From: Alphaproteobacteria bacterium
Lineage (GTDB): Bacteria > Pseudomonadota > Alphaproteobacteria > Rs-D84
NCBI GenBank assembly: GCA_017471805.1
Contig: JAFURS010000040.1
Location: 1-58,539, forward strand
Length of the DNA: 58,539 nucleotides
Direction of reading: 5' to 3'
Within the stretch, counting starts at the first letter, position 1, and each line of letters starts with the position of its first letter. Positions 1,328 through 29,113 of the stretch are shown piece after piece. Below the pieces are notes generated by a model. It did not search any database, was not told where the DNA came from, and was given only the letters and a program-made list of their open reading frames with translations. The position numbers were made by a program, and so were the translations under genes.

Positions 1328-3169
1328 TTAAAATTTCCGCAAAAGTCTTTTATCTTTCGAACAACCCCACACACTCGGATTATATTTGGCTAACCCACAC
1401 ATACAATAATCACCAAAACTCAATGCACTTCCATCGTGAACACCACCTGTTTTGATACACTCATTTTGTGCTAATGTCTGCATATAGTTGCCACCTTGTA
1501 AACTGGTCACACACCAGCCGTCCTCCCAAACACCACTACATTCGCAACGACCACCATTCCACGAACCCCAGAAATACAAACAAACATTTTCTTTGTTATA
1601 TTCTGGATTTTTATTTCCTAAATCCCCAAACGATTGCCCCCTATAATCCGTCACACGACCACCCGACAACCACGTTGTTTCCAGATTTTTATCTGTTGTG
1701 CAAATTTTCTTTGGCAATGTTTTTGTCGATACTGCCTTTTGCAATGACTGATAACCCGACGACGTCACGGCACAATACTTTACCCCATCTGGGTCTGGGC
1801 TCAACGACCCTGCAAAGCGATTCCCACCATATATTTCTGGTGCGTCTTGTTCAATAATACGTTCCAACGTTTCAATATCTATCGACGCCTGTTTTTTACG
1901 CCCACGGAAAAATACTGATGATTCCAATGCCGCCGACGCACACCCTATGCGAATCATATCATCACTGTCCCCTGTTTCCGCATACAACCAATTTCGCTGA
2001 ACTTCTTCTTTGTCATCCAATGTTCTTTGCAATACACAGGCCGGACTATCTTCGGCGGGAATAACCTGACCTTCATAACATTCCGCCCCACCGTTTGTTG
2101 TTTTCGACCGACGTGACCTGCGATTCTGACAATTGTCACTATTATATGTTTCCCGTGCCGTAGAAGAACACAAATATTCCCCCCACCGATTACATGACCC
2201 ATTTAACATCATATAAATATCGGTAATATCAACCCCAACCGCCTGGGCTGTAATCAGCGCATCATACAATTCGTTCAACACATCATTATACGGCTCAAAG
2301 AACTGCAATGCCTTGGTCTTGAAAACCTTGACCCGTTTTGGTCCAACACAGTTATTACCCGACATATCACATCCTGCATATTCGAACGCATTTTGCATTG
2401 TTGCTTTCAGTGATTTCAACGCAACCTCGGCCGCCTCTATCTTGGACATAATTTGCCCAGAAACCTGTTGACGTGCCAAAATATCTGCTGCAACGCCCTG
2501 CTGTGCGGCGGCAATCTGTTCATCTGACAAAGCACCTGTTGATGCGGTTGCGCCGCCCGAACCTGTTGCGCCCTGATTATTTGACTGCTTTTCCACGGCG
2601 GCCGCCGTCAACGCTTTTTGTTCATCCAATGCCGCCTGCATTTGTGCCATTTGTTGGGCATTTTGTTGTTGCATTTCATATTGCATTTGCGCCATCTGCT
2701 GTTGCATCTGTTGCAGTTGCGCATTATTTTGTGCCGCCACCGATTGCGCCGCCGCCTGTTGTGCTGCTATTTCTGCCTGCTGTGCCTTATTTGTCGCCGT
2801 TGACACCATCTGTGCAGAAATAAATTCAATCAAATCATCGCCATATTTTTTACAGACTTCATTGCTATTAACACACCCCGAAACAATCGGCCGTGCAATT
2901 TCCATTGTTGTGCAACCCGAACACTTTGGTTGCGCACAGCGCAAAATCAAAGAATTACAATTTCCAAAATCAGCCGTTGGCGCCGCATCCACCGCCCCTG
3001 TTGCCAGCGTCCGATTATTCATCAACTGATTCCAGTTATTATTATTTGTTGCCCCTGAATTTCCGTTCCAGGCGGTTAAATTACTGCCTGCGGTGGTTGC
3101 AACCTGCGCCCCTGCGACAAACGGACACAGACAACATACGAATAACAAAAATTGCTTAAAAAACTTCAT
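1328..3169 (-). CDS. large exported Cys-rich protein with Gln/Ala/Met coiled coil
   Basis: 613 aa; signal peptide ending VAGA; Q/M-rich segment; about 24 Cys in the mature part. No family recognised. Confidence 0.85.
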   Translation of the reverse strand: MKFFKQFLLFVCCLCPFVAGAQVATTAGSNLTAWNGNSGATNNNNWNQLMNNRTLATGAVDAAPTADFGNCNSLILRCAQPKCSGCTTMEIARPIVSGCVNSNEVCKKYGDDLIEFISAQMVSTATNKAQQAEIAAQQAAAQSVAAQNNAQLQQMQQQMAQMQYEMQQQNAQQMAQMQAALDEQKALTAAAVEKQSNNQGATGSGGATASTGALSDEQIAAAQQGVAADILARQQVSGQIMSKIEAAEVALKSLKATMQNAFEYAGCDMSGNNCVGPKRVKVFKTKALQFFEPYNDVLNELYDALITAQAVGVDITDIYMMLNGSCNRWGEYLCSSTARETYNSDNCQNRRSRRSKTTNGGAECYEGQVIPAEDSPACVLQRTLDDKEEVQRNWLYAETGDSDDMIRIGCASAALESSVFFRGRKKQASIDIETLERIIEQDAPEIYGGNRFAGSLSPDPDGVKYCAVTSSGYQSLQKAVSTKTLPKKICTTDKNLETTWLSGGRVTDYRGQSFGDLGNKNPEYNKENVCLYFWGSWNGGRCECSGVWEDGWCVTSLQGGNYMQTLAQNECIKTGGVHDGSALSFGDYCMCGLAKYNPSVWGCSKDKRLLRKF

Positions 3170-6551: not shown

Positions 6552-7841
6552 TTAGAACTGGAACATAACCTGTAAACCAATTTTGGTTTCTGAATAGTTA
6601 TCAATCTTTGCTGTTCCCAATTCTGTAAATTCGGTCATTTCAACTTTTGAACCATCACTTGCTTCATAGAACGCACCTGGTTCTTTCCAATAGAAACCTA
6701 AATCTTTGCCATCGGCACTGTCATAGAACGCCATTTTTGCATAAAGATTTAATGCGAACCAATCATTTGGTTGCCATCCAATTGCGCCCTTGATACTGCC
6801 CTGATTATGCCAATCATAATCACCAAAGATTGCCTCTACATTCAATGTCCAATCTTCGTTCAAGACACTAAACACACCGGCCCCCGCTTCCAGATACATA
6901 ACACTTGTATCGCCGACCTGGTATGGTAAATACATTGTTGATTCGCCACCCAATGGATTAGTTCCCGTCACACCATTGCCATATGAATTACCATCTAAAT
7001 CAACATACCAACCACGTGCCAAACCATATATTGTTGATGACGCAACCTTGTATCCACCCTTTAATTCAATCAGATAATTATTTGCAATATCTTTTTGATG
7101 CTGGAAATACGCAGACGCAGTTGCAATCCATTTTTCATTATCAACGAAACGCCACTGCCCACCAAATCCGAATAAATTCAGACCATTGTCATCCATTTTA
7201 TCATCTGGGGATTCATCGTCCCATTCGAATTTATATTCATTTGCATCATACTGCAACATTGCCATAATTGCGATACGATCTGTGATACCATAACTAAAAT
7301 CTTCTTTGATTGAAAATCCTGTCATATCCCACTTACCGCCATATCCATTCCAGGCCGTCACAGGATTATCAGACACATCAAAAACTGGCACAGTCTGATT
7401 TATTGTAAAATCATAAGAATTCATATTATAAGACAAATCCGTATGTGACCCAAACATACCTTCCAACGGCTGATAGAACGGATGTGCCAAGAAATATTTA
7501 CGTTTCATCTTGTTCACAACTTTTTCCGACCGTGTTGTCCGTGTTGTTGTCTTACTTGACTTTGCAGACGAAGACCCTGCCCCCTCGTATTGTTTATACA
7601 ATGCGCTACGATTTGCAGGTTTTGAATAATACAAATCACCTGCATCTTTGGATTCATATGTCTTTGTTAACGTGCGTGTTTGATATTTTTCATAGTTAAC
7701 ATTTTCACGTGTTCGTGTGGCGGGTGCGCCTGACAAATCTGCACTGGACCCTGCCCGTGTTCCCCAATTTGTTGCCGCATCTGCATTAACCGCTGCGATT
7801 GCTGCCAACATACCAAAAAAAACAGAACCTAATTTTTTCAT
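6552..7841 (-). CDS. outer-membrane beta-barrel protein with Ser/Thr/Lys-rich N-terminal extension
   Basis: SD AAGGAG before ATG 7841; signal peptide (ADA); aromatic-rich strands; C-terminal GLQVMFQF. Confidence 0.82.
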   Translation of the reverse strand: MKKLGSVFFGMLAAIAAVNADAATNWGTRAGSSADLSGAPATRTRENVNYEKYQTRTLTKTYESKDAGDLYYSKPANRSALYKQYEGAGSSSAKSSKTTTRTTRSEKVVNKMKRKYFLAHPFYQPLEGMFGSHTDLSYNMNSYDFTINQTVPVFDVSDNPVTAWNGYGGKWDMTGFSIKEDFSYGITDRIAIMAMLQYDANEYKFEWDDESPDDKMDDNGLNLFGFGGQWRFVDNEKWIATASAYFQHQKDIANNYLIELKGGYKVASSTIYGLARGWYVDLDGNSYGNGVTGTNPLGGESTMYLPYQVGDTSVMYLEAGAGVFSVLNEDWTLNVEAIFGDYDWHNQGSIKGAIGWQPNDWFALNLYAKMAFYDSADGKDLGFYWKEPGAFYEASDGSKVEMTEFTELGTAKIDNYSETKIGLQVMFQF

Positions 7842-7999
7842 AATAAACAACTCCTTTTAGTGAAATTATATCATAAATATTCATTATAAAAAAGTTAAAA
7901 ACACCAAACGATAAACATTTCACTATACAACCAACCTATGCCCCCACACACATATATTGCATAATTTTTTTGGACTTAGTTTTAGATAAATTGCTATAT

Positions 8000-10306
8000 T
8001 TAGCCTGCAATAATATGCCGCTTATTATTTGCGTCCGGCTCTGACAAGATACCGTCTTGCTCCATACGCTCAATCAAACCTGCCGCTTTATTATACCCAA
8101 TACCCAAACGTCGTTGCAGATATGAAATCGTTGGCTTTTTATCACGAATAACAATCTCTTTGGCCTGCTCATACAGGTCGCCCCCCTTACCACCGGCACC
8201 ACCACCTGAAATTGCCCCTGGCATACCTGGGAATCCGCCTGAATCATCGCCATCTGTGACCCCTTCGGCATACTCTGGTTCACCCTGACTACGCCAATGG
8301 TCGCCAATCTTGTTTAATTCTTCGTCGCTTATATACGCCCCGTGAATACGAACCGCCGGATGTCCACCTTCACTAAACAACATATCCCCCATCGCCAGCA
8401 ACTGTTCTGCCCCCGTTGCCCCCAATGTTGTCATACTGTCGATACGGCTTGCCGCCTGGAACGAAACACGTGTTGGGAAATTAGCCTTGATAACGCCGGT
8501 AATAATCGTCGCATCAGGTCGCTGGGTCGCCATAATCAGGTGGATACCTGCCGCACGGGCCTTTTGTGCAATACGTTGCACAGATAATTCAACTTCTTTG
8601 CGTGCAACCGCCATCAGGTCTGCCACCTCGTCAATAATAATGACCAAGAACGGCATATCTGACAAATCAACTTCCTGTGTTTCAAAAATCAACTCGCCTG
8701 TTTCTGGGTCTGTTCCAACCGGCACCTGATTAGTCACTTTTTCGCCTGCGGCACGTTTTTGCGCAACAATTTCATTATAACTTTCTATATTACGTGCATT
8801 TAATACACGCAACTGCTTGAATCTTTCTTCCATTTCACGCACCGCCCATTTCAGTGCGTTAATTGCCGCCTGTGGGTCCGCCTTTACAATCGGTGTAATC
8901 AGGTGTGGAATATTATCCCAGAACACAAAATCAACACCCTTGGGGTCAACAATCATCAACTTGCATTTATCTGGTGTAAAATGATAAACAATCGACGTGA
9001 TAATAGATTGCACAAACACCGATTTACCCGACCCAGTTCGCCCTGCGATTAACATATGCGGCATTTTTGCCAAATCAAAATACATTGGATTTCCGCCGAT
9101 ATTAACCCCCAACGCCAACGGTATTTTATACTTTGAATTTACAAACAAATCATCTTCCATCAACGACCGATAGCGCACCATTTGACGTTCCAAATTCGCA
9201 ACCTCGACCCCCAAATAATTAGACTTTGGCAATTGCGATATACGGAATTTCTCCACCGCCATTGCACGTGTCATATCCCTATTTGTCTTTTCGATATCAA
9301 CAATCTTCTGTCCTGGTGCAGGTTCAAATTCATACAACGTCACCACCGGCCCTGGCTTAATCGCAACAACCCGTCCCTCAACACCATATTCTGCGAAATG
9401 CGTTTCCATTGCCCGTGCATTTTGCTTTAATTCTGGGGTCACAACATATTTTGCCGCCGCAGACTTTTCCAACAAACGTGGATCTGGCAACTGGTATCCA
9501 GACGACACAGCCCGCACCCGTTTTGGCGCGACAACCGGCACAACCGCAGCCGCCTTGGGCGCATTTTGAACCTTTTGTATTCGCCGTCCTAATAAACCAC
9601 GTTTTGGTTTTTCCTGAACAGGTTCATCTGGGGCAACATCTTCTGCCTCTACATCACTACTCTCGACCACGGCAAAATCACCATCACGCACATCCTGCAC
9701 CGCCCCTGCACTTCGTGGCGACACCAGATGGAACGCCGCCCCAACCCAACGCAACCAACGCACAAACATACGAATTGCCGCCTTAACGTGGGCCCAACGA
9801 ACGTGCAAAATCACGCCCCCCATCCAAAAGAACGCAACCATACACAAAATTCCAACAATCGGCGCCATTGCCCCCAACAATTGCGCTAAATCCATTGCCG
9901 CAATTGCCCCAAACAGACCACCATACACTGCCTTTTGCGAAACCAAGCCAAATCCCGTCGCCCCCAAACAAACCGCAATAAACCCACGCAAGAAATTATA
10001 TTCTGGTGTTGCGCCACAATCCAAACCAATTAACCGTGCCGCCCCCCAACGTGCCACGCATAACAGCACAAAAATCCCTGGAATTGTTCCGATGGCATAA
10101 CGCAACGCCCCCACACACCATCCCATAACCGAATGACTACCAAATGTGCTGGCCACACCAAACCCATCCAAATACGGATTAAAGAACACCAACACCCCCA
10201 GGGCCCACAACGCCACCGCCAAAACGACCGCCCCAACAAATCGCTTTAACAGACTTCTCAGTGCATCTGCCACACTGCCCGGTAAAAATCTAGAATTTCC
10301 TGCCAT
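8000..10306 (-). CDS. ftsK: DNA translocase FtsK
   Basis: N-terminal TM segments, Walker A GRTGSGKS, Walker B IIIDEVAD, ATQRP, gamma domain ISYLQRRLGIGYNKAA. Confidence 0.97.
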   Translation of the reverse strand: MAGNSRFLPGSVADALRSLLKRFVGAVVLAVALWALGVLVFFNPYLDGFGVASTFGSHSVMGWCVGALRYAIGTIPGIFVLLCVARWGAARLIGLDCGATPEYNFLRGFIAVCLGATGFGLVSQKAVYGGLFGAIAAMDLAQLLGAMAPIVGILCMVAFFWMGGVILHVRWAHVKAAIRMFVRWLRWVGAAFHLVSPRSAGAVQDVRDGDFAVVESSDVEAEDVAPDEPVQEKPKRGLLGRRIQKVQNAPKAAAVVPVVAPKRVRAVSSGYQLPDPRLLEKSAAAKYVVTPELKQNARAMETHFAEYGVEGRVVAIKPGPVVTLYEFEPAPGQKIVDIEKTNRDMTRAMAVEKFRISQLPKSNYLGVEVANLERQMVRYRSLMEDDLFVNSKYKIPLALGVNIGGNPMYFDLAKMPHMLIAGRTGSGKSVFVQSIITSIVYHFTPDKCKLMIVDPKGVDFVFWDNIPHLITPIVKADPQAAINALKWAVREMEERFKQLRVLNARNIESYNEIVAQKRAAGEKVTNQVPVGTDPETGELIFETQEVDLSDMPFLVIIIDEVADLMAVARKEVELSVQRIAQKARAAGIHLIMATQRPDATIITGVIKANFPTRVSFQAASRIDSMTTLGATGAEQLLAMGDMLFSEGGHPAVRIHGAYISDEELNKIGDHWRSQGEPEYAEGVTDGDDSGGFPGMPGAISGGGAGGKGGDLYEQAKEIVIRDKKPTISYLQRRLGIGYNKAAGLIERMEQDGILSEPDANNKRHIIAG

Positions 10307-18909: not shown

Positions 18910-19044
18910 ATGCCACTAAAAAGAAAAAAGAATCATTCATTTTTGAAAATCTTAATCTGGTTGTTTATTGCAATCGTGATTATTTTAATGCTTATATCGT
19001 TTTCCACCCCGCAACATATGACAGAAATTGTGGTATATCCATAA
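18910..19044 (+). CDS. small single-pass membrane protein (44 aa), not in the ORF track
   Basis: MPLKRKKNHSFLKILIWLFIAIVIILMLISFSTPQHMTEIVVYP; basic N-terminus plus one TM; TAATG overlap with the xerD start. Confidence 0.75.
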   Translation: MPLKRKKNHSFLKILIWLFIAIVIILMLISFSTPQHMTEIVVYP

Positions 19045-19895
19045 TGAAATACATCGACATATTTTTAGAAGCCCTGTCTGCTGAAAAAGGCCGCAGTGAA
19101 AAAACCCTGACCAGTTATGAATCAGATCTTCGTCTGGCCGACGCTGCGATTTCTGGGGGATTGCTAAATGCCGACACAAATGCGCTTCAATCATATCTGT
19201 CACACCTGCCGGACAAGCCGTCATCCATTGCCCGCAAAGCATCTGCCCTGCGTGGTTTTTACAAATTTTTAATGCTTGAAAAAATAATTACCACCAACCC
19301 CAGCAGTGGTCTTGAATTACCGAAACGCAGTCGCAGTCTGCCAAAATATTTATCTGTTGATGAAATTGAATTACTAATATCCAGTGCCGGCGACATAAAA
19401 AATTCGACCCGTTTACGTGCAATGATTGAATTACTTTACGCATCTGGTCTTCGTGTATCTGAACTGTGCGAACTGCCGACAACGGCCATTTTAGGCGACA
19501 AATTACTAATCCACGGCAAAGGTGCCAAAGAACGCCTTGTTCCAATGCACGATGCGGCCATCAACGCATTAAACAAGTGGCTTGCCGTGCGTGTCCCCAT
19601 TGAATCAAAATATGTATTTCCATCAACTGGCAAAACCGGCCACATTACTCGTGACGGTTTTTTCAAGATATTAAAAAAATGCGCAATCTTGGCGGGCATA
19701 TCCCCCGACCGGGTCAGTCCGCACGTCTTGCGCCACTCGTTTGCATCCCACCTATTGGCGGGCGGTGCAAATTTACGTATAATCCAGACAATGCTTGGTC
19801 ACGAAGACATTTCGACCACCCAAATTTACACACACGTATTGCCTGAAAAATTACAAGAAACGATTGAAAACTATCATCCACTATCAAATAAATAA
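19044..19895 (+). CDS. xerD: tyrosine recombinase XerD
   Basis: YASGLRVSEL, GKGAKER, SPHVLRHSFASHLL, LGHEDISTTQIYTHV; housekeeping context. Confidence 0.9.
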   Translation: MKYIDIFLEALSAEKGRSEKTLTSYESDLRLADAAISGGLLNADTNALQSYLSHLPDKPSSIARKASALRGFYKFLMLEKIITTNPSSGLELPKRSRSLPKYLSVDEIELLISSAGDIKNSTRLRAMIELLYASGLRVSELCELPTTAILGDKLLIHGKGAKERLVPMHDAAINALNKWLAVRVPIESKYVFPSTGKTGHITRDGFFKILKKCAILAGISPDRVSPHVLRHSFASHLLAGGANLRIIQTMLGHEDISTTQIYTHVLPEKLQETIENYHPLSNK

Positions 19896-20473: not shown

Positions 20474-21479
20474 ATGAATAAGATTGACATTGTCTACCTG
20501 TGGGTTGATGGCGCTGATAAAAACTGGCTGCGTGAAAAGACAAAATGGGAACGCCTGGCCAATCCGCAAATGGCCCCTGCCCCTGGGACCGCATCTGCCG
20601 AACGTTATCGTGATAATAACGAATTACTATATTCCCTGCGCAGTGTCGCCCAAAACGCCCAGTTTGTAAATCACATCTATATAATCACCGGCTTTAACCA
20701 GATTCCCAAATGGCTAAACACTAAAAAATCCCAAAATAACGATTATCCCCCACGAAGCAATAATCCCTGCATCTGCCCTGCCGACGTTTAATTCAAACAG
20801 TATTGAAATGTGTATTCCGAACATCCCCGGACTTTCCGAACACTTTTTACTAATGAACGATGACATTTTTTTCAACAAAAAACTATCTGCATCCTTCTTT
20901 TTTGACAGACACGGCCACGCAAAGAACCTTTACGTCCATCGACGGGTAAAATATAAAAACCTGGACCAAATATTAAAGAAATCTAACACCTATCGTTCTA
21001 CAATTCTGTTAAGTGCGAAAAAGATTCACGAAATCTATGGCACAAAGATGTATTCCTATGCCCCATCACACGGCATTGACCCATACCTAAAATCCACCTG
21101 GATTCAGTTTCAAAACCACCCAGAAATCAAAGAATCCATTGAAAAACAAATCCATAACAAATTCCGTCAACGTTGGGAATTTCAACGTTGGTTATTTACC
21201 CTGAACCAGGTCGTTCAAAAACACGCCACATTTCGCCGTTCACACCCGCCCAAAAGTGGCCACAACAAAATTCTGGACACGATATATAATATAACCCACT
21301 GGTTCAGCATACGCCGCTCGTCCTATGTTTGCCCGCACGTATCAGGCCATAAAACATCATTAAAATATGCGGCAATATTTTGCATAAACGATTCCGGCCA
21401 AAACACACCCCAACAACTATCAGAAAACACCGAATATTTATCAAAACGCTTTCCCAACAAATCAGAATTTGAAAAATAA
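20474..21479 (+). pseudogene. Stealth-family phosphoryltransferase split by a +1 frameshift
   Basis: CR1 IDIVYLWVD and CR2 ELLYSLRS in ORF1; LLMNDD and FCIND..FP.KS.FE in ORF2. Removing one A at 20723-20728 restores collinearity with the paralog at 38906. Confidence 0.85.
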
Positions 21480-21518
21480 AAAATGGCTATATCATAAAAA
21501 TATGATATAATCACACCT

Positions 21519-22199
21519 ATGAAGCGTTCTATCTGGTTTTGGCTGTGTTTTGTATTGACTGTCATTTTGGCAATATATTTTGCCACCCGTATAATTATGG
21601 TTGGAATGGGTCACGGTGACATATCACGTGTTCGCAACATTTCTATTTCTGCCGATGGCCGGAACAAGGATTTATCTATGATTGCCAATGCGGCATCTGT
21701 TGCGCCTGGCACCCGCACATATTCTGTGAATCTTGACAATATAAACACACGGATATTGTCCGTTCCTGGCGTTCAAAAATCTGCGGTTCGTCGTCTTGCG
21801 AATGGGAATTTATCTGTTCAGGTATCACTTTACACTGCGATTGCCCTGTGGACTGATGGTGCCAACTATTATCCACTGTCTGCGGATGGCACAATTGTGA
21901 ACACCCCGACCGAAATTCGTGATGAAAATCACATTGTATTTCGTGGTGCGGTCCCGAACGACATATCTGCAATAACCGACGCCGCCCAAAATTTACTTGG
22001 CATACTGGACTATATTGAATGGATTGAAAATCGCCGCTGGAATCTGCATACCACGGGCGGGATTACCATAAAATTGCCTGAACATAACGCAATCAACGCA
22101 ATCAACACACTAATTACAATGAATCAGACGCATCACATTCTGAATCGTAAAATCAGTGTTATCGATATGCGTGACGACGCCCGTATTTTGGTAAAATAA
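21519..22199 (+). CDS. ftsQ: cell division protein FtsQ/DivIB
   Basis: N-terminal TM, POTRA-like VQKSAVRR, RRWNL and IDMRD; precedes ftsA. Confidence 0.9.
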   Translation: MKRSIWFWLCFVLTVILAIYFATRIIMVGMGHGDISRVRNISISADGRNKDLSMIANAASVAPGTRTYSVNLDNINTRILSVPGVQKSAVRRLANGNLSVQVSLYTAIALWTDGANYYPLSADGTIVNTPTEIRDENHIVFRGAVPNDISAITDAAQNLLGILDYIEWIENRRWNLHTTGGITIKLPEHNAINAINTLITMNQTHHILNRKISVIDMRDDARILVK

Positions 22200-22216
22200 A
22201 ACCTAAAAGTCTAAAA

Positions 22217-23992
22217 ATGAACTTGTTTGATTCATCTTTTCTATGCCTGGACATAGGCACATATTGTGTTCGTGGGCTTGCCCACAGGGTTCGTGGTGCG
22301 AACATTGACCGTTCTGCTTTTTTCAGCATAGACAGTTGCGACACGACATTTGCAATCAAGTCTGTAATTGACGAACTTGAAAAGCAAATTGGCGCCCACT
22401 TTGATGGTGCTTATATAACGGGCAACTTTGGTCAATCACATTACGATATGTCGTATCAGCCCCTAAATTGGAACGGGGAACATAAAATTACTGCATCTGA
22501 TATTCGTCATCAAATATCCCAGATAACACCACCTGATGGCTATTTTCCGATGCACATAATCCCACTGCGTTATTATTCCCCCCAGGCAAAAAATATGTTA
22601 ACCCCCATTGGTCATATTGACCACCAACTAATTTCCGTATTTGGGGTTATATCATACCTGCGCGGTGACACCGACAAATTATACGAACACCTTCATAATG
22701 CGCACATACAACCCAGTGCCTTTTACGACCCCCAGTTTTTACAAAATGCAATTTATCGCTCTGAAAAGCAAACAACCCTTTTCATAGACTTTGGTGCATC
22801 ATATACCAGCGCATCCATCTGGACCGACCGTGGACCGGTTTGGCACACAAAAATCGCCCAGGGCGGCAACGCAATAACCAACGCAATCAAGGACACGCTT
22901 AACCTGGACTTTGAATCTGCCAACCGCATTAAACACGCTGTTGCGTCTGTTATGCCCAAGGAAACAGACCGCTTTATTCCTGCGGACCGTGAATATGCCT
23001 TTTCACGCAGCGATGTGAACGACATAATTATTCCTATATTGGTTGACATAATCGCCCAGATAAAGGACCAATGCACCCCATCATTTAAAAAGCATCGTCC
23101 AACCAAAATTGTATTAACAGGTGGCGGTTGCGCAATCGAAGGTCTGCAAAACTTCATTGAAAACGCCTTTGCGGTTGTGACCAACGTTTTACCAAACGAC
23201 GCATCTGTTCGTGCATTATCTGACTATATCTGGCAGATGCAATCCGGCCGTCGCAATCGCTATATTGCCCGCCACAATCGTTGGGCCCGTCGTGCGAATT
23301 GGTTCACCCGCCTGTTCCGCCGTCGTCCAAAGCCTGCAACAAAATTCATTCCAATTATGCCCAGCACATTGTGCTTTGATATGCGTCGTCCAGAAACATA
23401 CAGTCTGTTTAAATCTGGCGGCATATCTATGATACACGTTGACATAATGGACGGGTTTTACGTTGACCGTGTGACGGACAATACCGAACAAATCAAAAAC
23501 ATCCGCTGTCATACAAACGCACACTTGCACGTTCATCTAATGACCGAAAGTCCGGCCGTTTGGGCATCTGATGCAATTTCTGCTGGGGCTGACACGATAA
23601 TTTTATCAACCGGCACATCTGGCCTGCGCAATGCGATAAAAACTGTTCGCAATTCTGGCCGTCGTGTTGGCATTGCCCTGCACCCTGATTCATCAGTGTC
23701 ATTATTAAAACCAATTTTGCGTGACATTGACGAAGTAATGGTTATGTCGGTTGCCCCTGGGGCTGCATCCCAGGCATTTATACCCGACTCTCTTCGCAAG
23801 ATATCTGTATTGGCCGCCACACGCAAAAAATACGGTCTAAAATTCTTAATATCTGTTGACGGCGGAATAACGCCTGAAACAGCAAAATTATGTTGGGACG
23901 CTGGTGCTGATTTATTAGTATCTGGTTCATACCTTGCCCGGTCTACTGATTTTCCACTGGCGGTTCAAAGTTTATTAAAGAAACCAGAATAA
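22217..23992 (+). CDS. ftsA-rpe: FtsA - ribulose-phosphate 3-epimerase fusion protein
   Basis: aa 1-340 actin-like (LDIGT, IDFGASYT, VLTGGG); aa 376-591 Rpe (HVDIMDG, HVHLM, VMSVAPG, VDGGI, GADLLVSGS). Confidence 0.9.
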   Translation: MNLFDSSFLCLDIGTYCVRGLAHRVRGANIDRSAFFSIDSCDTTFAIKSVIDELEKQIGAHFDGAYITGNFGQSHYDMSYQPLNWNGEHKITASDIRHQISQITPPDGYFPMHIIPLRYYSPQAKNMLTPIGHIDHQLISVFGVISYLRGDTDKLYEHLHNAHIQPSAFYDPQFLQNAIYRSEKQTTLFIDFGASYTSASIWTDRGPVWHTKIAQGGNAITNAIKDTLNLDFESANRIKHAVASVMPKETDRFIPADREYAFSRSDVNDIIIPILVDIIAQIKDQCTPSFKKHRPTKIVLTGGGCAIEGLQNFIENAFAVVTNVLPNDASVRALSDYIWQMQSGRRNRYIARHNRWARRANWFTRLFRRRPKPATKFIPIMPSTLCFDMRRPETYSLFKSGGISMIHVDIMDGFYVDRVTDNTEQIKNIRCHTNAHLHVHLMTESPAVWASDAISAGADTIILSTGTSGLRNAIKTVRNSGRRVGIALHPDSSVSLLKPILRDIDEVMVMSVAPGAASQAFIPDSLRKISVLAATRKKYGLKFLISVDGGITPETAKLCWDAGADLLVSGSYLARSTDFPLAVQSLLKKPE

Positions 23993-24001
23993 GAAAGAAA
24001 T

Positions 24002-24033
24002 AAATAAAACACCGCAAAAAACGGTGTTTTATT
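24002..24033. terminator. bidirectional intrinsic terminator
   Basis: aaataaaacaccg-caaaaaa-cggtgttttattt. Confidence 0.88.
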
Positions 24034-24127
24034 TTTGCAAACACAGCGCATTTAGGGATGTGGGTTCGGGCCTTTTGCCAAAGTCCTGATTTTTCGCAAT
24101 GTTCACACTGTGCGTTTTCTTTAACGC
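24002..24127 (-). ncRNA. unassigned structured small RNA (6S-like candidate)
   Basis: Extended -10 TGCTATAAT at 24134-24142; closing stem 24041-24050/24104-24113; central bubble; apical hairpin; ends at a terminator. Confidence 0.5.
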
Positions 24128-24181
24128 ATAACCATTATAGCAATGCGCCCCTGACAAATCCACAGGCAACAATTCCCAGAA

Positions 24182-24580
24182 CTATTGACGCACGATTTTT
24201 CGCCCATCCCCATTTTGTGTTATAAACAAATGAATTGTATTTTCTGGCAACAAATCACGTGCAATTTCCGGCCACTCAATCAACGTTATATCGTTTTGCA
24301 TTGCATATTCCAAACCGATTTCCGTCAATTCAGACACATCTTCGACCCGATATAAATCAAAGTGCGAAATCCCATCATACGATTGCACGATTGTAAATGT
24401 CGGGCTGGGGACAACGGTATCTGCGCCACGCAACGTTTGAATAACAGTTCTTGCAATCTCAGACTTTCCCATTCCCAAATCACCGTGCAGCGCCACCACC
24501 ACTGGTGCCACCAAGGTCTGTGCAAAATTCCGTGCAAAATCCCGTGTTTCTTCTATATTATTCAGAACATATTCTTGCAT
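24182..24580 (-). CDS. tsaE: tRNA threonylcarbamoyladenosine biosynthesis ATPase TsaE
   Basis: GDLGMGKS, SPTFT, HFDLYR, IEWP motifs. Confidence 0.96.
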   Translation of the reverse strand: MQEYVLNNIEETRDFARNFAQTLVAPVVVALHGDLGMGKSEIARTVIQTLRGADTVVPSPTFTIVQSYDGISHFDLYRVEDVSELTEIGLEYAMQNDITLIEWPEIARDLLPENTIHLFITQNGDGRKIVRQ

Positions 24581-26638: not shown

Positions 26639-29113
26639 ATGGCACTAACCCCAAAATGCAAGCGACGAATATTGTGGTCATTACTGTGTGCATTTTGCGC
26701 AATTGTCCTGTGCGCTATTATTATTCCGCCGTTTATCACCCTAAACAGTTTCAAACCTATAATTGAAAAATCCATATACGAACAAATGTTTGTTCCTGCG
26801 AAATTAAATGGGGACATACATTTCAGTCTGGTTGGTGGCGCCACGATTGTTGTTCACGACGTTGATGTTCCAACGGCCCGTATTGGTTCTGTGATGTTGC
26901 ATATTCCATTTTCTGATTTTTTTGACATTGAAAATGCACAACTTGAAAACACAGTATCTGTTTATGATGCCGACATTTCGATTTCAAAACTTGAACCTGC
27001 CTCGTTCAATCACAACATAAACATATACAACAGCACGATTGAATTTCTTGGACGTAAATTTTATGTCATCCGTGCAAAATTCCAAGACGGCGAATTTCAC
27101 GGCACCATTCGCACAGAAAAGCACAAATACGACGTTGAATTTATCGGCGACACATTTCATATCAAGAACAAAAACAACGCCCTTGAAATTACCGGTCAAA
27201 TATACTCAGACGGTTTAATTCGTGGCCACATAAGCCTTGAAACCGATGAAATCAACGACTGGTTTAATTTTTCTGTCCCCAGAATCGACAAAACCATTAA
27301 CGTCAGTGCCAACTTTGAATGGGACGGTGGCGACGGCTATAAATTTACCAACATTCAATCTGACCACATTTCTGGCAACATCGAAATCACCCCTGACGGC
27401 GAACGCATTATCCAATTGGTATCCAACGACCTGGACTTTGACTTTTCGTTCTTAACAACACCGGACACATCATTAAACAAGACAACACTAAATCTGGATT
27501 TATACGGCAAATTACAATTTGGCAACCAAACATTTAACCACCTTCGTGTTATGGCAACATCTGCCCAGAACAAATTACAAATTGGCAATATCCTGGCCGA
27601 CGACATTGCAATCACAGGTGGCACAATAACCCCAAATGGTGCATCAAATATAATGATTACAATGCCTGTAAATAACACAACCGCAATGTGTATATTTTCC
27701 GGCACCCCCAACGATTGGGAATGTTCTGTATTCACATACGGCAACCTATCTGGTTCACTGTCTGTTAATGAATCTGGCTACGATGTTTTTGTTCAATCCA
27801 ACCTGCCAATGCCAAATTCTTCTGAATTATTATCCCTTGCCAAACGATTGGGCAATCACGGCATAATAAACTTTCAATTCTCAGACATTGGTGGTGTATA
27901 TAAAATAAATGACAACAAAATCGACACAACCTATACCTATGCCCAGGACAAAACCCTGTCTTGGCTAAACCTAGATCTGCCATTTTTACCAGACTTCATA
28001 TTAAATGCCCCTGGCGATTTTTCGTGGGACGACGGTATGCTAACCTTTGTTCCATACAATAACCAATGGCAATTATCCACCTATGACAACTATTTTTACC
28101 TGTCCGGCATCAGTTTCAAGACCTGGCTGCCTGAACTAGATTTACAACCCATAAACGATTCAAATTATATAATCACTGGATTTTATTCATCTGGTCGCAT
28201 ATCTAACCTAGAAATCACAATCGACAATCACAAATTCAACGGCAGTTTTTCTGGCAACACCCTGACCCTGCACACCGCTCAGTTATCACTGGACGCAATC
28301 AAAAACCTTGAATACTTTGATAACTTTGCCGAACAAGAATTTTTAACCAATTCCCCTATTTTAATTCCATTTAATCTGCCGGTAAATATTTCCCTGTCGG
28401 CTGACACATTGGTATATGATGGCAACATTTATCAAAATTTCATCTATACCCTGAAACCCAATATCCAGACCTTTTCAATCACAGACTCTGACCGGGGCAA
28501 CATATTGGCAACTATTGAACGTGATAAAACGAACTATGATATATTTGCCCAATTGAACAAGTTCCTAATCAACGGCACACTGCTAAATACAAAAATGCCC
28601 CTTAATATCCAAGATTCAACAATAACCGGCCAAATTCTATTAACAACATCTGGCCAAATTGCCCACGACATAGACTATAATATGACCGGCACACTTGATT
28701 TAACATTTAACGGCGGTAAAATTATTGGAATGTCATTTGATAAATTTTATGCATCCGCCGAAAACATCACATCATTAAATGCCGAATACGCCCTGTCAAA
28801 CGCACTATCTGGTGGCGAAACGGCCCTAAAACAAATGCGGATTATTGGCACCTATGAACACGGAAACTTTATTACCACCCAACCGATTGAAATATCTATG
28901 CGCCACACCAGTGGCATTGGTGGCCTGGCAATAAACGACGGTATGATGACGGCTGAATTTGATTTAACACTGCGTGGCACGGCCCCAACACCTGCAACAA
29001 TCGCATTAAGCATTCTGCCCGACGGCGGTCGTCAGTATTCATTATCTGAAATAATGAAAGACATCGATCCTGGTTTTATGCGTGCATTTGTGAAAACCCA
29101 CGACAAGTTTTAA
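26639..29113 (+). CDS. AsmA-family (lipid-bridge-like) envelope protein
   Basis: 824 aa; N-terminal TM anchor followed by PPFITLNSFKPIIE..LNGDIHFSL; beta-rich throughout; C-terminal AsmA-like region. Confidence 0.7.
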   Translation: MALTPKCKRRILWSLLCAFCAIVLCAIIIPPFITLNSFKPIIEKSIYEQMFVPAKLNGDIHFSLVGGATIVVHDVDVPTARIGSVMLHIPFSDFFDIENAQLENTVSVYDADISISKLEPASFNHNINIYNSTIEFLGRKFYVIRAKFQDGEFHGTIRTEKHKYDVEFIGDTFHIKNKNNALEITGQIYSDGLIRGHISLETDEINDWFNFSVPRIDKTINVSANFEWDGGDGYKFTNIQSDHISGNIEITPDGERIIQLVSNDLDFDFSFLTTPDTSLNKTTLNLDLYGKLQFGNQTFNHLRVMATSAQNKLQIGNILADDIAITGGTITPNGASNIMITMPVNNTTAMCIFSGTPNDWECSVFTYGNLSGSLSVNESGYDVFVQSNLPMPNSSELLSLAKRLGNHGIINFQFSDIGGVYKINDNKIDTTYTYAQDKTLSWLNLDLPFLPDFILNAPGDFSWDDGMLTFVPYNNQWQLSTYDNYFYLSGISFKTWLPELDLQPINDSNYIITGFYSSGRISNLEITIDNHKFNGSFSGNTLTLHTAQLSLDAIKNLEYFDNFAEQEFLTNSPILIPFNLPVNISLSADTLVYDGNIYQNFIYTLKPNIQTFSITDSDRGNILATIERDKTNYDIFAQLNKFLINGTLLNTKMPLNIQDSTITGQILLTTSGQIAHDIDYNMTGTLDLTFNGGKIIGMSFDKFYASAENITSLNAEYALSNALSGGETALKQMRIIGTYEHGNFITTQPIEISMRHTSGIGGLAINDGMMTAEFDLTLRGTAPTPATIALSILPDGGRQYSLSEIMKDIDPGFMRAFVKTHDKF

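Follow-up and report, generated by a model that had tools for sequence, protein, structure and literature searches.

FtsA is the membrane anchor of FtsZ, whose C-terminal peptide is bound by FtsA subdomain 2B, and ribulose-phosphate 3-epimerase (Rpe) is an enzyme of the pentose-phosphate pathway known as a stand-alone protein that crystallises as dimers or hexamers. Here we describe a gene that joins the two in one open reading frame (ORF), found behind ftsQ on contig JAFURS010000040.1 of an alphaproteobacterium from a family that we take to be Rs-D84 (“Ca. Enterousia” and kin, order Rs-D84); the 58,539 nucleotides of this contig are the window that we analysed. An initial annotation of the window had read this ORF of 591 amino acids (aa) as an FtsA domain with three actin-fold motifs fused to a complete Rpe, and Pfam, profile comparison, and structural modelling all bear this out. 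It had missed a key piece of context, however, which is that no FtsZ is detectable in the family, so the fused FtsA cannot do its textbook job of anchoring FtsZ.

With canonical FtsA, as represented by the structures from Vibrio maritimus (7Q6F), Thermotoga maritima (1E4G/4A2A), and S. aureus (3WQT), the fused protein shares the actin fold with its 1C insertion, the ATP motifs, a helix that follows the core where the membrane-targeting helix would stand, and a gene position behind ftsQ, and these proteins are its best structural and profile matches. It differs from them in being about 30–45 residues shorter, having lost residues close to the N-terminus, within 2B, and ahead of the final helix, in that the SHS2 model is silent on this copy, and in that the helix is internal, a 212-aa enzyme occupies the C-terminus, and no FtsZ partner is detectable. 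Stand-alone Rpe proteins (S. pyogenes 2FLI, Synechocystis 1TQJ, human 3OVP) have in common with the fused domain the full barrel, the His/Asp/His/Asp ligands, and the phosphate-binding Gly loops, but the fused Rpe has no start of its own, begins its first strand after 13 disordered residues past the FtsA helix, is presumably tethered to the membrane, and carries a dead site in 2 lineages. Sister families of the order Rs-D84 have the same gene order, ftsQ-ftsA-rpe, and the tail helix of their FtsA and the N-terminus of their Rpe align with the fused junction. Theirs are nevertheless 2 proteins, the ftsA stop touching or overlapping the rpe start in another frame, and in these families FtsZ is present and FtsA scores normally, SHS2 included.

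Like the FtsZ-less Chlamydia, Planctomycetes, and Wolbachia supergroup J, as these appear in a review (PMC10591338), the family combines the lack of FtsZ with retention of FtsK, FtsQ, an FtsW/FtsI-like pair, MreB, RodA, and a PBP2-like protein. In the table of that review, however, ftsA and ftsZ are present or absent together, and Chlamydia and Wolbachia supergroup J are without FtsA too, whereas the Rs-D84 family keeps FtsA, in fused form, as well as ZapA. Its members are gut-associated bacteria not known as intracellular, unlike FtsZ-less symbionts. Planctomycetes, too, are not known to have FtsA.

The fusion is a property of the whole family, which in our data set comprises 121 genomes from 18 genera, all of them metagenome-assembled. 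PMC12306168 places Enterousia in the order and family Rs-D84 and gives genomes of less than 1 Mb; the assembly that contains our window consists of 57 contigs and is 79.6% complete. A protein search recovered a full-length match in 23 of the 24 other genomes of the genus (48–74% identity), the single miss being a 70%-complete genome, and all 24 genus loci that were read, this one included, hold a single intact ORF of 588–596 aa behind ftsQ. The 20 loci read from 16 other genera likewise hold a single fused ORF each (564–623 aa), and matches extend to 120 of the 121 genomes and to all 18 genera, mostly over residues 1–589 and down to 30% identity. An ftsQ-like ORF precedes the fused gene in every locus (24/24 in the genus and 20/20 beyond it, 44/44 in all), the identity of these ORFs in the relatives being judged by position and shared C-terminal sequence. 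Stops flagged in the genomes G019 and G024 (1 TAA / 1 TAG) proved to be the normal terminal ones of intact 590-aa ORFs; the similarly flagged G089 is not among the loci read.

Protein databases and other sequencing projects give the same picture. A word-indexed protein search returned 779 matches, of which the top 120, from several sources, are all 584–598 aa long and carry both Pfam domains; the query itself falls into a cluster of 99–100% identical proteins (P0002), with 119 further fused relatives of 584–598 aa. Among the best 150 matches in 1.84 billion cluster representatives, 19 proteins of at least 540 aa are fused and the rest are stand-alone Rpe of ~210–230 aa. The junction is spanned by DNA contigs from 2 other studies (window positions 21400–23719 and 22417–23997) and by contigs from RNA libraries of a third (22888–23459 and 23025–23468), altogether from 4 independent runs in 3 studies, with no indels listed in any of them, although the RNA libraries may contain DNA. 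The initial annotation had allowed that relatives might carry ftsA and rpe separately or that a stop had been lost or a misjoin made in this assembly; all family relatives are fused, and the contigs of other runs cross the junction intact. Mean pairwise identity within the genus is 53% for FtsA, 35% for helix plus linker, and 70% for Rpe. The ratio of nonsynonymous to synonymous substitution rates (dN/dS), from the 3 of 276 pairs with unsaturated dS, is 0.03–0.24 for FtsA and 0.05–0.15 for Rpe, and by this measure both domains are under purifying selection. The fused ORF is thus genuine, in frame, and ancient.

How the fusion arose can be read from the sister families. In 4 of their genomes (G029, G025, G032, and G028) ftsA (402–426 aa) is directly followed by rpe (195–235 aa), the 2 genes touching or sharing 1 to 22 nt, and ftsQ often precedes the pair. 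The sister-family FtsA ends in a short helix of the type K-x-W-I-K-E-x-L, whose aligned counterpart in the fused helix is the conserved K/R-(I/L)-F stretch, and in the alignment the N-termini of sister-family Rpe proteins fall on the fused sequence F-I-P-I-x-P-S. With genes that abut or overlap in this way, fusion needs just the loss of the ftsA stop and a small frame change. Synteny shows an ancestral order ftsQ-ftsA-rpe in which the start of rpe coincided with the stop of ftsA or lay within it, and from this order the fusion formed in place. Fused Rpe domains form one clade in the Rpe-domain tree, with support of 100 in the Shimodaira–Hasegawa-like approximate likelihood ratio test, which indicates one origin; the link of this clade to sister-family rpe has a support of 69 and is not resolved, so the case for an origin in place rests on synteny. 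Around 20 distant rpe loci, no FtsA-like ORF was found in the available flanks (up to 3 kb per side, shorter at contig ends). The sister-family pair is not always contiguous: in G040 (L022:3493-5295 (+), family f3) a 600-aa ABC transporter (ABC_membrane plus ABC_tran) separates ftsA from rpe, and in 4 other f3 genomes the 2 genes lie ~2 kb apart.

FtsZ, by comparison with these sister families, went undetected. Neither the FtsZ_C nor the tubulin/FtsZ GTPase domain of Pfam was found in any of the 25 genus genomes, against 14 of 16 sister-family genomes that have them, and the tubulin/FtsZ GTPase domain (Pfam Tubulin, E up to 0.01) was found in none of the 121 family genomes, 102 of which are at least 90% complete, in a search that recovered it from 13 of 14 model genomes used as a control. 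A tblastn search of this genome with 6 sister FtsZ proteins gave a best E of 0.06. Other division and cell-wall genes remain: all 5 genomes examined for division genes keep 2 SEDS (shape, elongation, division, and sporulation) proteins, 4–5 transpeptidases, MreB, and FtsK, and no second FtsA was found in them. One SEDS gene of each genome adjoins a transpeptidase gene, and the other lies between 1.8 kb (G000, G054, G070, G102) and ~19 kb (G056) from another. Outside the family, 2 genomes of the order that are 92–93% complete (G027 of family f4 and G034 of family f2) yielded no FtsZ, FtsA, Rpe, or transketolase, their PF14450 matches being MreB, which suggests that the FtsZ/FtsA pair has been lost in other lineages of the order too, and more completely; with these 2 lacking both proteins, FtsA without FtsZ is seen just where it is fused to Rpe.

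The Rpe half is a complete barrel. Ribul_P_3_epim (PF00834) matches aa 382–573 with an E of 5.6e-41 over profile positions 4–197 of 198, and matches 44 of 44 family copies; the profile of the 24 genus copies finds the solved Rpe 2fli (6.5e-50), and a Foldseek search with the structural model returns Rpe chains with template modelling (TM) scores of 0.83–0.92, 2fli at the top (TM 0.92, root-mean-square deviation 1.3, 32% identity). Met381 and the motifs HVD (407–409), HLM (440–442), and VDGG (547–550) lie where the initial annotation had put them, and the barrel keeps its ligands. H407, D409, H440, and D548, the metal ligands and the acid/base pair of Rpe enzymes, are invariant in the genus, and 43 of the 44 family copies have the full set, G049 alone being without it. 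The fused domain is the sole PF00834 match of this genome, in which no separate rpe was found; an extra stand-alone Rpe-family ORF occurs in a few genus genomes (G119, G141, G136, G065, and G011). Production of Rpe from an internal start at Met381, which that annotation had named as a possible undoing of the fusion, is ruled out as a general rule, since codon 381 is not conserved as a start (ATG in 12 genus copies, TTG in 4, TTA in 5, and GCA in 3, hence a start codon in just 16 of 24). A metabolic setting for the enzyme is present: transketolase is confirmed in this genome by Pfam, and RpiB is found in 5 of 5 genomes. Weak scores had raised the doubt that the transketolase matches of the genus might be DXS, but Pfam identifies this genome's copy as a true transketolase. 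According to PMC12306168, most Rs-D84 genomes carry the non-oxidative pentose-phosphate genes, transaldolase excepted.

The FtsA half is more divergent but recognisable at several levels. Pfam FtsA (PF14450) matches aa 189–320 above the cut-off (E 6.6e-10), the actin-fold motifs D12-I-G14, D191-F-G193, and G302-G-G304 are invariant or nearly so in the 24 genus copies, and the genus profile matches the solved FtsA 7q6f (2.8e-17, query 6–340) ahead of PilM and MreB. An AlphaFold2 model built from the 24 genus sequences (mean predicted local distance difference test score, pLDDT, 89.1; predicted TM score, pTM, 0.60) has 4 parts, an actin fold with a 1C-like insertion, a helix at aa 343–366, a disordered stretch, and a (beta/alpha)8 barrel from aa 380. 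The beta/alpha insertion at aa 74–161 occupies the 1C position, in place of the 1B of MreB and actin, and Foldseek ranks FtsA chains at the top (TM on target 0.66–0.76, 7q6f 0.76), with PilM at 0.53. Across the family, PF14450 matches 42 of 44 copies and SHS2_FTSA 5 of 44, this copy not among them, so that the support for 1C is more structural than sequence-based; D12 is kept in 41 of the 44 copies and D191 in 40.

Between the 2 domains lies the segment that the initial annotation had described as an amphipathic membrane-targeting helix made internal by the fusion, quoting RWARRANWFTRLFRRR, which is indeed aa 355–370. The segment aligns with sister-family FtsA tails, so what used to be the C-terminal helix of FtsA has come to lie inside the protein, and a helix is predicted at aa 343–366, with a conserved K/R-(I/L)-F motif. 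Its amphipathicity, on the other hand, is weakly supported, the hydrophobic moment exceeding that of composition-matched shuffles (≤7/200 reach it) in just 5 of 24 copies. More striking is the net charge, +7 to +14 in the helix segment against −2 to +2 in sister-family FtsA tails. The linker that follows is variable in sequence and constant in its basic character across the genus (mean pairwise identity 35% for aa 341–379), and pLDDT falls below 50 at aa 368–374. The likeliest identity of the internal helix would be a polybasic, partly hydrophobic membrane-binding element.

In some natural variants, residues of the Rpe site have been replaced. G049 (98% complete; L119:1531-3300 (-)) has an intact fused ORF of 589 aa in which S383, H407, D409, and D548 of Rpe and D12, D191, and G193 of FtsA are all replaced; no other Rpe and no transketolase were found in this genome, and the Rpe fold is still recognised by Pfam at 7e-27. 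A second lineage, represented by the database protein P0142 (31% identical to the G049-like P0133), has lost H407, H440, and D548 of Rpe, partly another set than in G049 with D548 shared, and keeps the FtsA motifs. These dead-site fused ORFs (G049/P0133 and P0142) are intact at 575–589 aa and look like pseudo-enzyme forms, while 17 of 19 fused cluster representatives keep the Rpe site. In G049 catalytic residues have disappeared along with the pathway, in keeping with a working enzyme elsewhere in the family; that the barrel persists after the catalytic loss, in turn, hints at a structural role.

Our preferred reading, to which we would give a probability of roughly 0.6, is that the gene encodes a vertically inherited, bifunctional FtsA-Rpe of a reduced-genome family of gut Alphaproteobacteria, working in cells without detectable FtsZ; the best reading of its distribution is that the fusion was fixed at the root of the family Rs-D84. 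In such cells, the Rpe domain would be the ribulose-5-phosphate 3-epimerase of a non-oxidative pentose-phosphate route that includes transketolase and RpiB, and the FtsA part may hold it at the membrane, the 2 domains acting as beads on a string. The FtsA part would still bind ATP, the membrane, and probably late divisome proteins (FtsQ, FtsK, and the FtsW/FtsI-like pair), and division itself may be FtsZ-independent and driven by peptidoglycan synthesis, with MreB also available. Rpe could in this way be tethered to the divisome and pentose-phosphate state coupled to division, as the initial annotation had proposed.

Several observations weigh against this. All of the evidence is computational, from metagenome-assembled genomes; the RNA-library contigs across the junction are no proof of transcription, of one transcript, or of one translation product, and in genomes of this kind an FtsZ gene could still sit on an unbinned replicon. 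Of the 25 genus genomes, 24 retain ZapA, which binds FtsZ, a puzzling finding if FtsZ is gone; the FtsZ-less sister genomes G027 and G034 retain it as well. The 2 deep lineages that keep the full fused ORF despite replaced Rpe ligands call the beads-on-a-string picture into question, and in genus g14 the phosphate-1 Asp of FtsA is replaced by Tyr. Transketolase has no match in G008, G016, and G017, 3 genus genomes whose fused Rpe site is intact. Finally, where codon 381 is ATG or TTG, as it is in 16 of 24 genus copies, an internal start or proteolysis could still yield an Rpe-only product, and one database protein (P0137, 209 aa) begins exactly at this codon, although it is probably a gene call at a contig end.

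Of the alternatives, the one that survives best, if still unlikely, would make the fusion a functional response to the loss of FtsZ, the Rpe barrel having become an oligomerising or spacing module that clusters membrane-bound FtsA into a division scaffold, with catalysis second and dispensable. The fusion is found in all 18 genera and FtsZ in none of the same family, and FtsA without FtsZ occurs in the order just in fused form (G027 and G034 being without FtsA and Rpe too), while the FtsZ-less bacteria listed in Table 2 of the review (PMC10591338) are without FtsA as well. Two deep lineages, moreover, keep the full-length fused ORF and the Rpe fold after losing different metal ligands, with no transketolase found in G049. 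Yet fusion and FtsZ loss fall on a single branch and so amount to one event, not a correlation, and 43 of 44 species, like 17 of 19 cluster representatives, have kept the Rpe site intact. Rpe is also the better conserved half, as would be expected of a plain enzyme, and the model, with a low pTM (0.60) beside its high pLDDT, does not point to any fixed placement of the 2 domains relative to each other. The stronger form of this idea, equally doubtful in our estimation, is that an FtsZ-less clade divides by means of an FtsA scaffold in which the fused barrel is a self-associating structural module, possibly a sensor of pentose-phosphate supply; this would explain both the survival of FtsA after FtsZ loss just in fused form and the retention of the barrel after catalytic loss. 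The initial annotation had also raised an oligomerisation module as a possibility, an idea whose sole support is the pair of divergent lineages that keep the fused barrel after the loss of catalytic residues.

A less probable alternative is that FtsA lost its division role together with FtsZ and remains as an N-terminal membrane anchor, or as a leader for the expression or folding of an essential Rpe. The FtsA half does evolve faster, both within the genus (53% against 70% identity) and in the 20 copies from other genera when compared with the window copy (22–53% for FtsA, 35–67% for Rpe), its Pfam FtsA score is 39.9 bits as opposed to 97.6 bits plus SHS2 in a sister-family FtsA, and the ATP motifs are lost in g14 and G049. 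Among the subdomains, conservation within the family is lowest for 2B, the FtsZ-binding part (0.28), and among sister families it is highest for 2B (0.29 compared with 0.23–0.28), although the difference is weak. A hitch-hiking FtsA is nevertheless hard to reconcile with a dN/dS of 0.03–0.24 for this half, with ATP-binding residues invariant in 24 of 24 genus copies, and with a gene that follows ftsQ in all 44 loci. An actin fold conserved over 340 residues is also more than a simple anchor would require.

We consider it more improbable again that FtsZ was never lost and is either too divergent to be detected or encoded on a replicon missed by binning, with the fused FtsA anchoring it as usual. 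The retained ZapA would make sense if this were so, as would the retention of FtsA, FtsQ, FtsK, and the FtsW/FtsI-like pair, and every genome is metagenome-assembled. The Pfam Tubulin model that is silent on all 121 family genomes, however, scores equally reduced sister families at 1e-35 to 1e-50, and the negative set includes 2 assemblies that are single contigs (G102 and G070). Searched at E up to 1, 5 near-complete genomes gave no match to a profile built for the order from 6 sister FtsZ proteins. The tubulin signature, written as a DNA pattern, finds ftsZ in 13 of 14 FtsZ-holding sister genomes; in the genus, it gave 23 hits in 12 of 24 genomes, and none of the 9 loci inspected is FtsZ-like, these being out of frame or Gly/Thr-rich low-complexity sequence. 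A single contig of this genome, furthermore, carries the genes that flank ftsZ in 3 sister genomes, and the interval between these genes holds dnaB, a helix-turn-helix (HTH) gene, and a 213-aa ORF but not ftsZ. That the fused ORF is an artefact of misassembly, of a sequencing error that removed a stop, or of a pseudogene in one genome is refuted. This assembly is fragmented and a Stealth-family gene close by seems to be frameshifted, but the fused gene gives no support to such a reading, and against it stand the same architecture in all 44 loci read, matches in 120 of the 121 genomes, hundreds of proteins of this kind in databases fed by several sources, the indel-free contigs of 4 runs from 3 studies, and the purifying selection on both halves.

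The region that lacks ftsZ in this genome has features of its own. On contig C7 (G000, C7:7500-19000, L152) it belongs to a phage-like gene set, with a Terminase_6N-like ORF, an ORF like the RNaseH domain of T7 terminase, and a head-tail connector/portal gene, that is syntenic across the families of the order (L148, L150, and L151) and may be a domesticated element resembling a gene transfer agent. In this genome dnaB, the double-HTH gene, and the 213-aa ORF separate the 2 terminase-like ORFs; the sister families have ftsZ in the interval from the terminase-N ORF to the portal gene. The zapA of this genome lies on the same contig, outside the window (G000:C7:31917-32177 (+), PF05164, 4.9e-11).

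In the literature searched, which did not extend to Begmatov et al. 2023 (Ca. Enterousia, Microbiology), neither an FtsA-Rpe fusion nor a lack of FtsZ in these bacteria was found described, and the remark in the initial annotation that no example had been described stands to that extent; the accessible portion of PMC12306168 makes no mention of FtsZ, FtsA, or cell division. Public (NCBI) annotation names the product only “ribulose-phosphate 3-epimerase” and so hides the sole FtsA homologue of these genomes. The family is widespread in ruminants, horses, birds, termites, and people, and it keeps a selected FtsA without detectable FtsZ, just as a fusion to an enzyme of central metabolism. If confirmed, this would be a natural system for the role of FtsA alone, whether in recruiting and activating FtsQ and the FtsW/FtsI machinery or as a polymerised scaffold, and a lineage with FtsZ-independent division that belongs neither to the Planctomycetes-Chlamydiae group nor to the intracellular symbionts. 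The fusion may, in addition, exemplify how an enzyme barrel turns into a structural part.

Table 1. Features of the fused gene and its immediate surroundings, in window positions.
Feature	Position	Strand	Description
ftsQ	21519..22199	+	226 aa; Pfam FtsQ_DivIB_C 7.4e-11, plus sub-threshold POTRA_1 (0.0018; 19 bits, cut-off 23)
Fused ftsA-rpe ORF	22217..23992	+	591 aa plus stop; ATG start
FtsA domain	22217..23236	+	aa 1–340; actin fold, 1C (SHS2-like) insertion at ~aa 71–164; motifs D12/G14, D191/G193, G302–G304
Helix	23243..23314	+	aa 343–366, by DSSP on the AlphaFold2 model; strongly cationic; second half aligns with the C-terminal membrane-targeting helix of sister-family FtsA
Linker	23315..23353	+	aa 367–379; predicted disordered, Lys/Arg/Pro-rich, F-I-P at its end
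Rpe (beta/alpha)8 barrel	23354..23989	+	aa 380–591; H407, D409, H440, D548; S383; G549-G550; G570-S571
Terminator-like hairpin	24002..24034	.	14-pair stem (called on the minus strand) with T/A runs on both sides; between convergent ftsA-rpe and tsaE

The fused ORF starts 18 nt past the ftsQ stop on the same strand (Table 1), and downstream, on the other strand, come tsaE and uvrB, ftsZ not being next. There is no obvious Shine-Dalgarno sequence before the true start of the ORF, so that the lack of one before codon 381 carries little information, and promoter-like sites in 21300–24300 are uninformative (8 observed, 8.1 expected from shuffles). Upstream of ftsQ, a Stealth-family (capsule phosphotransferase-like) protein is split over 2 plus-strand ORFs in different frames, 20474–20791 with CR1 and CR2 and 20808–21479 with CR2 and CR4, which looks like a frameshift or an assembly error; in L009, the sole other genus locus that reaches this far upstream, a DnaJ-domain gene abuts ftsQ with no Stealth gene between. 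An ORF at 19044–19895, on which no search was made, we take by eye to resemble XerD. Three large ORFs are without a Pfam match at E up to 1e-5, namely 26639–29113 (+, 824 aa), 1328–3169 (−, 613 aa), and 6552–7850 (−, 432 aa). FtsK, with its alpha, motor, and gamma domains, is encoded at 8000–10306 on the minus strand, 12 kb upstream of ftsQ, and the remainder of the window is ordinary chromosomal housekeeping, including MutL, SecD, an S41 protease, LptF/G, AspRS, and BipA.

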